Positions 39,256-42,624 are shown, counted from the stretch's first letter. The stretch is DNA of 64,000 bases from Patescibacteria group bacterium (GCA_041661385.1 JBAZUP010000001.1:81692-145691), one strand, 5' to 3'. Translations and numbers: made by a program. Notes: generated by a model not told the origin, from the letters alone.

Positions 39256-39280
39256 GCAGGCCCGACCGAAGTCGGGCCTG
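39256..39280. repeat. 20-nt perfect hairpin GGCCCGACCGAAGTCGGGCC, left copy (island boundary / minus-strand terminator)
   Basis: identical to 42603-42622; sits immediately after the rpsI terminator at onset of GC-rich DNA. Confidence 0.6.
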
Positions 39281-39301
39281 TAAGTTGTGGGGGTCGTGGG
39301 C

Positions 39302-39490
39302 TTAGGGGCCCGTTCGATTGTTCATCTTGCTCGCGCTGTAGGCCATCGTGACAATGGCCATGCCGTTGTCCAAGGCCGAGCTTGTGTTGTGAATCACGAT
39401 CGAGAAACCTTCGTTTCTCATCTTCTCGAACCACGAGTTGATGGATTTTCTGACATCGTTCGGATTTCCGTAGAAGATTTCGACTCCCAT
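39302..39490 (-). CDS. hypothetical small protein (62 aa, GC-rich, AGGAGG SD)
   Basis: tool ORF trimmed to ATG with AGGAGG 8 nt upstream; followed on its strand by TGTGGGGG motif and the hairpin repeat. Confidence 0.35.
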   Translation of the reverse strand: MGVEIFYGNPNDVRKSINSWFEKMRNEGFSIVIHNTSSALDNGMAIVTMAYSASKMNNRTGP

Positions 39491-39696
39491 GTCCCTACCT
39501 CCTGTTTTTCGCCCAAAATTGGGCAAGTTTGCAGATTTTGAGGACTTAAGAGTATATCATAAAAATACCATTTTGTCAATACTCTCGCGGATATAAAATA
39601 TCCATATTACCCCTCCCACATATCTTGACATTTCCTGATTTTAGGCCTAAAGTCAAATTCAACGAGCGTTCATTACAACCTATAAAGGGGAAGAGA

Positions 39697-40380
39697 ATGG
39701 CAAAGAAAATGATCTTCCTCATGAGTGAGGAAGGAGTGTCGGAGGGTGCATTACAAGTTGTGCAACATAGCATTATTGAAGTGTTGAAGATCGCTTCATC
39801 GGAAAATAAATTATTCAACCGAGTTCAAGTCGTGAATTGGGGATATTGGTGCTCACCGCGACATTTGCTTGGTAATCTTCCTCGTCCGTTCATGAGTATG
39901 GATTGGTACTTGAATATTGCCCGCGAAAAGGGTACTGATCGTATTAATACGGACAAGCTTTACCGGATTCTTAATCCGAATCCAAAGCCGGAGTACGTGA
40001 AGATTCCACACTTTGATCACTTCAAAGTGGTCGTCTTAAAGAGTGAGATCGTTCACCCGTTTAACCCTAGCCTCAAGGCTTATGGGACCGGCCGATCCGG
40101 ATTGGGTGCCTGCATTACCACCAAAGGTTTTACCGACAATAATATCAGCGATGTTCTTGATCTCAAGACTATCGCGATGCATGAAGTTGGGCACATGTTC
40201 GGACTCATTCCGAGGTCGCGAAGTACTGCTGTCGAGGAAAGCAGTGGCTTGCATTGCACTAATCGGTGCATAATGCGCCAGGGAAAACTCACGGTCATGA
40301 CCTCTGACCGGATAAGGTATGGTGAGTTTTGCCCAGATTGCAAGTACATTCTCCGGGCCGCATTCCGCGCCCTAAACTGA
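39697..40380 (+). CDS. archaemetzincin-like zinc metalloprotease (peptidase M54-like)
   Basis: HEVGHMFGL-x12-HCTNRCIM-x22-CPDC matches HExxHxxGx3Cx4CxM...CxxC archaemetzincin signature; AAGGGGA SD. Confidence 0.6.
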   Translation: MAKKMIFLMSEEGVSEGALQVVQHSIIEVLKIASSENKLFNRVQVVNWGYWCSPRHLLGNLPRPFMSMDWYLNIAREKGTDRINTDKLYRILNPNPKPEYVKIPHFDHFKVVVLKSEIVHPFNPSLKAYGTGRSGLGACITTKGFTDNNISDVLDLKTIAMHEVGHMFGLIPRSRSTAVEESSGLHCTNRCIMRQGKLTVMTSDRIRYGEFCPDCKYILRAAFRALN

Positions 40381-40461
40381 TGAACGCGCTCGTGCCAGGC
40401 GTCCATCACCTTTGAATCTAAATATTTTAGGTGCAAAGGTGACGCCTGGAAAAAAGAATAT

Positions 40462-40491
40462 AAAAAATCCCGATCAATTCGGGATTTTTTA
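40462..40491. terminator. bidirectional intrinsic terminator between convergent metzincin-like and MACPF-like genes
   Basis: A6 aatcccga..tcgggatt T6. Confidence 0.65.
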
Positions 40492-40544
40492 ATATCCGGC
40501 CTCCCCGTTAGATGGGGGAGACCGGAGTGAAGAAGTTGAAATAG

Positions 40545-42275
40545 TTACGGTGCACCGCAGTCGGTGCCGTCTTCGTCGCAGATGTCGGCTTTGACGTTGA
40601 AGAAACGACAAGTCGTCCATGACGATCCGTATTGGCAATGTGCGTTGATCAGGTCGGCCTTCACGCCGCTGTCCGGAGCAGACGAGCCGACTGAAATGTT
40701 CTCGGAAAGCGTGAAGTCCCAGACCGTTGGCTGGTCGTAGAATTTCAGGTCAGTTCGGTAGTAACATGAAGGTGATCCTGCGGCGCACGTGTTTGTGTTC
40801 GGCAAACTTTTTGATTCAAGAAGCACGTCAATCCAGGTACCAGTAATTATGCCTGTGATGTCAGTTGTCACGAGGCCGTTGTATCGAACTAATGTGTTTG
40901 CACCTGGGCGCAGATACTTACATTCGGATGCAGTGATACCAGGCACTCCTGTGTTTCCCGGGTTTGCGGTCTGCTGCGGAAATGAGGTGAAGCGGCAGCG
41001 TGTGCAGTATCCGTAGCGATCAAATTCGAAATTCGAGTTGACGCCATTGGTGCAGCGCGGTCCACAGTTCATGTTGTTCAGTACCGGCAAGTTGAAGTCG
41101 ATCGGATTGATCGGAGCGAGACATGCGGTCGATGCCGCTCCACATTGGCTTGCAACTCGACAGGCCGCCGCCTTCTGTTGCATCTTCTTGATGAAAGCGT
41201 CGACCTCTTGTTGTTTATTCAGGAACATGCTGAGGTCTCCATCACATCCGGCGTCGTAGAGGCGACCGGGGTGATTGAGGCGGTTCTTCAGGTCGTTCTG
41301 GAGCAGGCGGGCTTTCTCATAATAGTTCGCCATGTTTTGCATCTCATCTAGCTGAGCAGTAATATCGGGGAACCTCTTACCGTTCGGGAAATTTGAAGCG
41401 GCGTAGTAAGACCGGGTCGACACCGACACCGGGTACGCGTTTGCGTAGGTGAGTGGTGTTGAGGAGCTAATCGAGCCAAAGTCGATTGCCTGAGCGATCA
41501 ACTGATCGGGGGTGAGACCGACCGTGGTAAAGGTGCCGCCTTGCTGGAAGACCTGCAGCTCGGTTCGGTACTGTTTTTGAGCTGCTGCAAGGTCGCTCTT
41601 AAATGAGGCGTCACCGCTCCAATTTCCGGAATTAGCGCTAAGTGTAATACCCAGGGATTCCTTGGTTTTCACACTGAGCTCAGAGAACTTGTACACGGCG
41701 CGAAACAGACCGCCCTTGGTGATTGACGACACGAACTGGTCGCCACACTGGGCATAGAAGCCCTCGGGGTCGCTGTTTAGTTTTGCAATGGCTTGATCGG
41801 TTAGATCAGCGGGAGACAGGACCCTCGCTGGAAACTGGACATTGACATCAAGCACCAGGTAAGCGCTCGTGCTGTCTATGGCTTGAGAGTTGTAATAGTT
41901 TGCGCTCGCTTCCACGCTAGAAAGACCTGCTGACCACTCGACGTTTGCATCAAGCGAAAGTGCCGTGCGAAGGGCCGAAGTGTCCTTTGCGTAAGTGAGC
42001 TTGAAACTACGCTGAGCAGTAGTGGGGTCAGGAGAAGTATCCGCTGTGACTTTGATGCACTGATCAACAATCGACCCGTTCAAGGTGCTGAGACCTGAAC
42101 CGATGAGGATCGCTGGCATGGCGCCCAAATAGTTCTGACTTCGAGAGACCAGGGCGGGCACGCAGGAGGAACCGTCGACAGAATCTTTTTTGCCACAACC
42201 GTTGTTGGTGAGGGAGGTGAGAAAGATGAAAGCAACAAATGCAAACCACCTTGGACTCATCATTATCTTGGTCAT
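40545..42275 (-). CDS. Cys-rich secreted lipoprotein with MACPF (perforin-like)-like domain features
   Basis: signal peptide plus lipobox-like LTNNGC; IGSGLSTLNG; amphipathic Ser/Thr/Ala stretches; CGDQFVSSITKGG approximates [YW]G[TS]H[FY]x6GG; C-terminal 250 aa with >20 Cys; start trimmed to MTKIMMSPRW. Confidence 0.45.
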   Translation of the reverse strand: MTKIMMSPRWFAFVAFIFLTSLTNNGCGKKDSVDGSSCVPALVSRSQNYLGAMPAILIGSGLSTLNGSIVDQCIKVTADTSPDPTTAQRSFKLTYAKDTSALRTALSLDANVEWSAGLSSVEASANYYNSQAIDSTSAYLVLDVNVQFPARVLSPADLTDQAIAKLNSDPEGFYAQCGDQFVSSITKGGLFRAVYKFSELSVKTKESLGITLSANSGNWSGDASFKSDLAAAQKQYRTELQVFQQGGTFTTVGLTPDQLIAQAIDFGSISSSTPLTYANAYPVSVSTRSYYAASNFPNGKRFPDITAQLDEMQNMANYYEKARLLQNDLKNRLNHPGRLYDAGCDGDLSMFLNKQQEVDAFIKKMQQKAAACRVASQCGAASTACLAPINPIDFNLPVLNNMNCGPRCTNGVNSNFEFDRYGYCTRCRFTSFPQQTANPGNTGVPGITASECKYLRPGANTLVRYNGLVTTDITGIITGTWIDVLLESKSLPNTNTCAAGSPSCYYRTDLKFYDQPTVWDFTLSENISVGSSAPDSGVKADLINAHCQYGSSWTTCRFFNVKADICDEDGTDCGAP

Positions 42276-42600
42276 TGGTTTTCTCGCAAGTGAGGGTGTT
42301 TGTTTGGTTAGATTCAAGTCATTTAGACATTTTAGGTTATGAGTCTCCTTTTCGAGTTTTGGAATCAACTTCTTTTGGTCGTTTCGGTCAAAATGACCAA
42401 AAAACAACACGTTGTAAAGTACAAAAAGCCGTTAAAAAACGACTTGTTCTCATAAATTAATTATGAGAAACAAAATTACCATATAGTAAAATTGCTAATA
42501 TGTCAAGTATTCTAGCTACAATTTTTGTATTTTAATTCGTTGAAGTAAACGTCAATTTTTATCACTTAATGTCTCTAATCAGATTATCAAATATATAATA

Positions 42601-42624
42601 AGGGCCCGACCGAAGTCGGGCCCT
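42601..42624. repeat. 20-nt perfect hairpin GGCCCGACCGAAGTCGGGCC, right copy
   Basis: identical to left copy 3.3 kb away; followed on minus strand by U-rich tract. Confidence 0.6.

Follow-up and report, generated by a model that had tools for sequence, protein, structure and literature searches.

The window analysed here is a stretch of 64,000 nucleotides (nt) from a Patescibacteria group bacterium (GCA_041661385.1, JBAZUP010000001.1:81692-145691), a tiny organism and probably a symbiont, in which all positions are counted from the first letter. Directly 3' of rpsI, the final gene of the rpoA-rplQ-rplM-rpsI cluster, lies a block (39256-42624) that contains a 62-amino-acid (aa) open reading frame (ORF), small62, a zinc metalloprotease of a divergent archaemetzincin (M54) type, and a 576-aa protein of the MACPF/CDC superfamily, framed by two hairpins that share an identical 20-nt core, GGCCCGACCGAAGTCGGGCC. 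A second candidate small ORF, small63, follows the right-hand hairpin, and beyond it come bcp, two further genes of native composition and a flippase gene. On balance, we think it probable that the block is an accessory-gene patch at a variable junction, that the MACPF gene was acquired horizontally, and that the hairpins are terminators of minus-strand transcripts. An earlier note on this DNA, made from the sequence, had read the block as a mobile island with att-like boundaries and a toxin module; the genes and the foreign composition that it described stood up, whereas the boundaries and the module did not.

The large gene of the block encodes 576 aa, one fewer than the 577 first reported. 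Its product contains 19 cysteines and a signal peptide that ends ..NNG immediately before C27, and its domain plan comprises a MACPF domain (residues ~45-300), a long helical hairpin (~306-372) and a Cys-rich TNF/C1q-like jelly roll (~410-576). The 18 cysteines besides C27 point to an extracytoplasmic protein. In the lipobox region (...FLTSLTNNG before C27), the residues at -3 and -2 are non-canonical with respect to [LVI][ASTVI][GAS]C; homologues have canonical lipoboxes (GLAC, ALAC, VSAC and LTGC) at the aligned position. From these sequence features, the protein is probably secreted and lipid-anchored. The consensus of the MACPF signature is [YW]-G-[TS]-H-[FY]-x6-G-G. The corresponding motif here, C177-G-D-Q-F-x6-G-G188, has the glycine, the aromatic residue, the GG pair and the spacing of the signature and differs from it at residues 1, 3 and 4; within the family, conservation reaches at least 90% at C177, G178 and G188. 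Over residues 97-137 and 199-236, the presumed TMH segments, the beta-hydrophobic moment is 1.2, against a protein mean of 0.86, with peak z-scores of 2.4 and 1.6, respectively.

Relatives of this protein are easily missed. Pfam and NCBIfam gave no match to it (none to PF01823 at E <= 1), PADLOC gave none, and a word-indexed homologue search returned only the protein itself, as did the same search with a 63-sequence family profile. An exhaustive HMMER search recovered 1266 homologues at E <= 1e-3, of which the best is 44% identical, and those at 30-44% identity lie in contigs of 58-70% guanine-plus-cytosine (GC) content. When the 63-sequence profile was compared with solved structures, its match to the Alternaria Aeg-L pore (9uj0) had E = 1.3e-21, and those to Mpf2Ba1 (0.01), astrotactin-2 and GNIP were weak; fold searches likewise had PlyB and Aeg-L among their matches. 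The modelled fold has a central bent four-stranded beta-sheet with helical clusters, TMH1 and TMH2, on its flanks. An AlphaFold2 model made from the single sequence was poor (predicted local distance difference test score, 38.5). We place the 576-aa protein in the MACPF/CDC superfamily. The description of it as a MACPF-like lipoprotein is thus supported by the profile and fold matches and, for a probable lipid anchor, by the signal peptide and the canonical lipoboxes of homologues; pore formation, like a biological target, is inferred. No relatives of the MACPF protein or of the protease were found in the viral contigs scanned. As for the wider family (P0028-P0176 among its 1266 proteins), no Pfam model matched the 576-aa protein or the ten homologues scanned, and the Cys-rich TNF-like C-terminal domain is common to the closest members; the family seems to be a sizeable branch of the perforin superfamily that annotation has missed.

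The composition of the block sets it apart from its surroundings, although less evenly than was first thought. A jump to 50-55% GC over about 3.3 kb had been claimed; the rise is real but patchy, with a mean of 48.3% for 39256-42624 against 38.2% in the remainder of the window, and 53% is reached only in the MACPF gene (small62, 50%; protease gene, 47%; intergenic stretches, 29-44%). GC content at third codon positions (GC3) is 0.61 for the MACPF gene, 0.75 for small62 and 0.53 for the protease gene, against a background of 0.353 +/- 0.061 in 52 genes, which corresponds to z-scores of +4.2, +6.4 (for a short gene) and +2.9. Five native genes also reach z-scores of +2.1 to +2.7. The block is among the top two outliers of the window in tetranucleotide distance, and together with the GC3 values, this bears out its description as foreign in composition; relatives, moreover, do not have its genes at this locus. 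With the genes up to about 44.3 kb included, the extra DNA described below is a mosaic of GC-rich and native-composition genes.

An assembly chimera was ruled out, as four independent assemblies, 99.9-100% identical to the window, have the identical arrangement, with 0 single-nucleotide polymorphisms (SNPs) among them in 39257-42624. Strain-level SNPs relative to other assemblies of the same organism occur outside the block at 38090, 38093, 38468 and 43990, the last of which (G>C, in the gene for the 112-aa protein) was seen in three assemblies.

The features of the region are collected in Table 1. The block does begin straight after the rpsI terminator (RNA fold, -17.1 kcal/mol; z = -4.8), and all three genes ascribed to it exist, the protease and MACPF genes being convergent on a common bidirectional terminator as had been proposed. 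The fourth small ORF, small63, which lies just upstream of hairpin 2 on the minus strand, had been overlooked.

Table 1. Genes, hairpins and promoter-like sites from rpsI to the flippase gene, in window coordinates
Feature	Position	Strand	Basis or remark
rpsI (ribosomal protein S9)	38795..39202	+	ORF; PF00380 on the identical gene in L001; conserved in relatives; left anchor of the variable junction
rpsI intrinsic terminator, native type	39214..39238	+	AAAACCCGCC-loop-GGCGGGTTTT and a T run
Hairpin 1	39257..39280	-	10-bp stem, cUUCGg tetraloop, then CUGUAUUUUU; holds 20-mer copy 1
small62, 62-aa ORF	39302..39490	-	AGGAGG Shine-Dalgarno sequence; gene also called in the NCBI record (L001)
Promoter-like site for small62	39551..39579	-	TTGACA-17-TATACT with TG, 11/12
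Archaemetzincin (M54)-type zinc metalloprotease, divergent, 227 aa	39697..40380	+	
Bidirectional A-tract/stem/T-tract terminator, native style	40461..40491	.	Common to the convergent protease and MACPF genes
MACPF/CDC-superfamily protein, 576 aa	40545..42275	-	NCBI locus tag WC725_00580
Promoter-like site upstream of the MACPF gene	42478..42506	-	TTGACA-17-TATGGT; within the 29% GC spacer 42276-42602
Hairpin 2	42601..42624	-	10-bp stem, cUUCGg tetraloop; holds 20-mer copy 2
small63, candidate 63-aa ORF	42648..42839	-	CxxC...CxCC; AAGGA Shine-Dalgarno sequence
Promoter-like site for the small63 transcript	42919..42947	-	TTGACA-17-TAAAAT, 11/12
bcp (AhpC/TSA peroxiredoxin), ArfB-like RF-1-domain protein, 112-aa hypothetical protein	43005..44176	+	Native composition
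Polysacc_synt flippase, right anchor	44257..45699	+	

The two copies of the 20-mer are exact and in direct orientation, as had been reported; they lie at 39259-39278 and 42603-42622 on the plus strand, which moves copy 1 by 2 nt from the 39261-39280 given at first. No further copy was found in the window even when 3 mismatches were allowed (0 matches are expected in shuffles), nor a third copy elsewhere in the ~80 kb of this genome. At both sites, the 20-mer forms the core of a perfect hairpin whose stem has 10 bp and whose loop has 4 nt. The outermost two stem pairs are unlike between the copies (CA..TG and AG..CT), yet complementary in each, and the flanks of the two hairpins align locally no better than shuffled sequences do. 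On the minus strand, each hairpin has a GC-rich stem, with 8 GC pairs among the 10, and a cUUCGg loop closed by C-G. Hairpin 1 stands 21 nt past the stop codon of small62 and is followed by a U-rich tail (CUGUAUUUUU), while hairpin 2 stands 23 nt past the stop codon of small63 and has a weak U/A tail (UAUUAUAUAU). Their folds reach -23.6 kcal/mol (z = -5.2) and, over a 66-nt stretch, -31.9 kcal/mol (z = -5.7), respectively. The hallmarks of an intrinsic terminator, a GC-rich hairpin and a U tract after a stop codon, are thus fully present at hairpin 1 and weakly so at hairpin 2. On their common strand, hairpin 2 has small63 on one side and the MACPF promoter on the other, and it could thus insulate the MACPF gene against read-through. 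The other terminators seen over ~80 kb of the genome belong to the AAAACCCGCC type (A-tract/CCCGCC), unlike hairpins 1 and 2. Against Rfam, the window as a whole had no match at gathering thresholds, and the terminator regions matched small-RNA models below threshold only. Two further structures lie nearby on the minus strand: a second small hairpin (GCCGGAAAUCCGGC) at 42631-42645, directly past the small63 stop codon, and a weak terminator-like hairpin at 42426-42445, in the long AT-rich leader of the MACPF gene, which could be a leader or attenuator element.

The small ORFs upstream of the hairpins offer little by way of homology. Neither small62 nor small63 matched Pfam or NCBIfam, small62 had only a weak match in PHROGs (E = 0.004), and its comparison with PDB sequences yielded noise only. 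The 3' 100 nt of small63 are 50-62% GC, and other gene callers preferred an overlapping 67-aa ORF (42715-42918) over it.

The 20-mer recurs far from this genome. We found it exact, and once per stretch, in 86 GTDB species-representative stretches and 10 viral contigs; the genomes are unrelated to this one, and the taxa, which are mostly of high GC content, include Cryobacterium, Leifsonia, Streptomyces, Embleya, Acidobacteriota and Opitutae, and some of the viral contigs are only 38-44% GC. In these places, it lies shortly 3' of coding ORFs and mostly has the UUCG orientation (41 versus 12), with T runs after it and with a stem lengthened by complementary flanks peculiar to each genome. This placement across many genomes marks GGCCCGACCGAAGTCGGGCC as a recurrent terminator-like design. 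A tblastn comparison of all island proteins with the 96 loci that hold the 20-mer found no homologue beside it. The earlier note had named a generic terminator family as evidence that would speak against its island; across genomes, the hairpin is such a family, and within this genome the comparison covers about 80 kb. Hairpins 1 and 2 are best explained as Rho-independent terminators rather than recombination sites.

The junction itself varies among relatives. Among 80 related loci collected via rpoA, at least 11 relatives, themselves distant (rpoA 53-71% identical), have a flippase homologue 25-220 nt after rpsI. Since rpsI is joined to the flippase gene in these relatives, what the window has in addition is some 5 kb, from about 39.2 to 44.3 kb, and includes the bcp, ArfB-like and 112-aa genes. 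This extra DNA is not confined to the inter-hairpin block, and the hairpins do not delimit it, hairpin 2 lying in its middle. Closer relatives differ from one another in the DNA after rpsI: an unrelated ORF in L114, the closest of them (87% identical), AT-rich unknown ORFs in L115 (80%), about 460 nt of unrelated GC-rich DNA in L129 (78%), a glycosyltransferase gene in L160, and in L124 (12266-19890) a 7.6-kb defence-type island with RadC, NYN, EcoRI-type methylase, PIN_8, GmrSD-HNH and Schlafen/AlbA_2 ATPase genes. The rpsI-flippase junction is a variable hotspot with differing cargo in relatives. In none of the 80 related loci was there a hidden Markov model (HMM) match to the protease or MACPF families or a copy of the 20-mer hairpin, and a look-up of the exact rpsI sequence for strains that lack the island returned the same organism only. 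The ORF after rpsI in L114, which by eye resembled the N terminus of the protease family, was rejected: hhalign gave a probability of only 60% over 43 residues, and BLASTP and HMMER gave nothing.

The protease is recognizable as archaemetzincin-like, as had been suggested, though at some distance. It falls short of the curated cut-offs (PF07998, E = 0.38 and 11 bits against 24.4; NF033823, 18 bits against 145). Twenty-five homologues at 30-38% identity were found, 16 of which carry a precomputed PF07998 assignment, and the profile of the family matches the AmzA structures 3zvs, 4axq and 2x7m at E = 8e-11 to 8e-9, with the zinc motif and the cysteine cluster aligned. The invariant pattern of the family is HExxGHxFGL...R...G-HCTNRCIMRQG...DR...C..C. 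HEVGHMFG is present; the third histidine does not stand at +11 as in HExxHxxGxxH, and about 17 residues separate G169 from the invariant H186. The insert of about 14 residues that displaces this histidine is kept in all 26 family members, which argues for a variant spacing. The cluster H186-C187-TNR-C191-I-M193...C212-PD-C215 is invariant in the family alignment and aligns with the same residues of AfAmzA. By sequence, a divergent variant of M54 is the description that suits the protein best; no signal peptide was seen on inspection, and the protease is probably cytoplasmic.

A relative with the same synteny (L008/L009) has a copy of the protease between RNase J and mraZ that is 32% identical to that of the window, while its LepA, MraZ and RNase J are 75%, 86% and 63% identical to those of the window genome. 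Given this low identity and the other locus, against housekeeping proteins that are so similar, the window protease would stand at a new site as a distant paralogue or xenologue. In L008 (6001-6735) and L009 (5133-5867), an M54-like protease gene and a divergent small gene are inserted in LepA-MurJ-hypothetical protein-RNase J-MraZ-RsmH; the equivalent site in the window has only a 190-nt spacer (9589-9780). The family thus moves from one locus to another in this lineage. The L008 gene, too, is GC-richer than its own genome, so that a raised GC content by itself says little for a recent import of the protease.

The twin hairpins could be read in other ways. They might be attachment sites (attL and attR), or the trace of a Campbell-type crossover at 20 bp of homology, by which a circular small62-protease-MACPF element duplicated a hairpin already present beside rpsI. 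Identical direct 20-mers do frame compositionally odd genes, the GC boundary on the left falls at the left copy, relatives have varied cargo at the junction, a hotspot, and a tyrosine recombinase like XerC/D (Phage_int_SAM_1 plus Phage_integrase; L197, 11736-12701) is encoded ~0.3-1.3 kb past the 3' end of the window, about 22 kb from the island. We nonetheless consider this quite unlikely. No integrase or transposase occurs among the Pfam-annotated called genes from 33.6 to 51.7 kb (~9 kb around the block), no tRNA gene occurs in the window, and the island proteins have no recombinase domain in Pfam or NCBIfam. Had a crossover taken place within the core, the flanks should be chimeric, but each copy has complementary outer pairs of its own, for which we estimate a chance of about 1 in 256; between the right copy and the GC-rich genes lie 325 nt of 29% GC DNA; the DNA missing in relatives is larger than the hairpin-bounded block; no relative has the hairpin at the junction; and in other genomes the same 20-mer is terminator-like. 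The att-like boundaries of the earlier note were accordingly abandoned in favour of terminators, on account of the placement and orientation of the hairpins, their recurrence in 86 genomes, the differing outer pairs, and the lack of a recombinase or tRNA gene nearby. A small mobile palindrome, like a repetitive extragenic palindrome, a miniature inverted-repeat transposable element or an IS200/IS605 end, that happens to have two copies here would fit a perfect unit with an identical core and unrelated flanks, unlike the native terminators; it would have to explain why there are only two copies in ~80 kb, no Y1 or RAYT-type transposase among the annotated neighbours, single copies per 8-kb stretch (usually one per genome) in the 86 other genomes, and both copies exactly in terminator position and orientation, and we hold it to be highly improbable.

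For the genes, it could be argued that nothing is foreign, that they are lineage-specific native genes with a GC content set by amino acid content or selection, and that ordinary rearrangement made the junction differences. The AT-rich spacers, the native-style promoters and the native-style terminator at 40461-40491 are in keeping with this, as are the five native genes of raised GC3, the occurrence of the protease family in a related genome, where it is GC-rich too, and the invariance of the island in the four strain-level assemblies. Yet the GC3 of the MACPF gene is 4.2 standard deviations over background at synonymous sites, which are independent of amino acid content, its nearest homologues are in contigs of 58-70% GC, neither family occurs in any of the 80 related loci, and the protease is 32% identical to the relative's copy at another locus where housekeeping proteins are 62-86% identical. 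Wholly native genes are, in our judgement, decidedly unlikely. We also regard as unlikely the proposal that the protease and the MACPF protein make up a two-gene toxin module, in which the protease processes or activates the pore former and the small proteins serve as immunity proteins or chaperones. The genes are adjacent and convergent with one common terminator, and there is a documented case, that of BSAP-1, in which proteolysis activates an antibacterial MACPF toxin (bioRxiv 10.64898/2026.08.05.742979). The same preprint, however, places the cleavage of BSAP-1 on the target cell. The two genes here are separate transcription units on opposite strands, and the MACPF protein is exported while the protease shows no signal peptide on inspection. 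Nor is the linkage of the families conserved in the other contigs examined: in these, the protease homologues lie in housekeeping neighbourhoods and never beside a MACPF gene, and the MACPF homologues have no M54 neighbour. The module that the earlier note proposed therefore lost its footing.

Our preferred reading is of an accessory-gene patch with minus-strand terminators. Accessory genes would pile up at the junction 3' of the ribosomal-protein/rpoA cluster in a small Patescibacteria genome, and the clearest foreign part would be the MACPF gene, gained by horizontal transfer, which the occurrence of its homologues in contigs of 58-70% GC fits. In its product, the two helical clusters of the N-terminal module would unfurl into membrane-spanning hairpins, and the Cys-rich TNF/C1q-like jelly roll at the C terminus would bind a target surface. 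Hairpin 1 would end the small62 transcript, and hairpin 2 would end a small transcript upstream of the MACPF gene and so screen the MACPF promoter from read-through. The identity of the hairpins would most likely stem from a shared origin, either because both came in with GC-rich DNA or because a terminator was copied locally. When and in which direction the transfer took place, and that the hairpins terminate transcription, are what we infer. Several observations weigh against the reading. The Pfam MACPF model has no match to the 576-aa protein, and the donor lineage was not identified. The AT-rich spacers within the block (29-44% GC) indicate that it is not one fresh piece of GC-rich DNA, and the protease, with its family also present in the related Patescibacterium L008, may not be a recent import. 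Terminators of independent origin would not be expected to have identical 20-mers 3.3 kb apart, and a common origin still calls for an explanation; hairpin 2, moreover, has only its weak U/A tail, and the ORF that it would terminate, small63, is a candidate.

Elsewhere in the window, between an mnmA-like gene and alaS, a low-GC island (26490-32120; 24-31% against a background of 39%) has five plus-strand genes; among their products are a radical SAM enzyme, a Lant_dehydr_C protein and one of 694 aa whose match to Lant_dehydr_N is weak. No other part of the window deviates as strongly in tetranucleotide composition, and the island looks like a split-LanB/radical-SAM cluster of the type that makes ribosomally synthesized and post-translationally modified peptides.

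To our knowledge, how episymbionts of the candidate phyla radiation (CPR), also called Patescibacteria, breach or tap their hosts is largely unknown, and our full-text literature searches found no paper linking MACPF proteins to Patescibacteria or CPR. As antibacterial MACPF toxins with receptor-binding C termini exist in Bacteroidales, a role of the protein against host or competitor bacteria is plausible by analogy. One may speculate further that a CPR episymbiont captured the MACPF gene from high-GC bacteria, that the surface lipoprotein, with a TNF/C1q-like lectin head, perforates the envelope of a host or competitor, and that the 3' junction of rpsI is a lineage-wide landing pad for accessory and defence genes; we regard this full scenario as rather unlikely. 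If it were true, a surface pore former would be a concrete candidate for metabolite extraction by ultra-small symbionts. A well-modelled, exported MACPF protein with a putative lectin-like targeting domain is a specific gene to test, and the rpsI-flippase junction could be used as a marker for accessory and defence genes in the lineage. There is also a caution here, in that identical GC-rich palindromes around DNA of odd composition can be terminators and not recombination scars.

Set against known systems, the locus resembles genomic islands and hotspots in that many relatives have nothing at the rpsI-flippase junction and others have unrelated cargo there; unlike at integrated islands, we found neither an integrase nor a tRNA target, nor host sequence duplicated as att sites. 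The hairpins resemble cUUCGg Rho-independent terminators in their perfect GC-rich stem, the UUCG loop closed by C-G, their position 21-23 nt past a stop codon and, at hairpin 1, the U-rich tail; they differ from these in the poor U tract at hairpin 2 and in the presence of two identical copies close together. The protease shares with archaemetzincins (AmzA of Archaeoglobus and Methanopyrus) the HExxH..G zinc site and the HCxxxCxM...CxxC cluster; unlike them, it has the ~14-residue insert, between the GL of the zinc motif and the HC that contains the presumed third histidine, and an extra N-terminal domain of about 100 residues, and its nearest relatives are only 30-40% identical.

Among proteins of the MACPF fold, stonustoxin, perforin, MPEG-1 and complement C6-C9 are 9-14% identical to the 576-aa protein and differ in their accessory domains. 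Aeg-L (9uj0) is the large partner in a pore former that has two components (PMC13341504) and, among solved structures, matches best at the sequence level, over ~305 residues of the pore-forming domain and with the common motif CGDxF-x6-GG. Aeg-L and pleurotolysin B work with a lipid-binding small aegerolysin; none was recognized here, where small62 and small63 are without family matches, and the fungal proteins do not have the putative lipoprotein signal and the TNF-like C-terminal domain of the 576-aa protein. BSAP-1 and BSAP-2 of Bacteroidales are antibacterial MACPF toxins whose C-terminal domain binds a surface receptor of the target bacterium (PMC4999547; bioRxiv 10.64898/2026.08.05.742979). 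The 576-aa protein differs from them in that its C-terminal domain is a TNF/C1q-like jelly roll and its host phylum is Patescibacteria; like the BSAPs, by description, it is an exported bacterial MACPF protein with a separate C-terminal domain.

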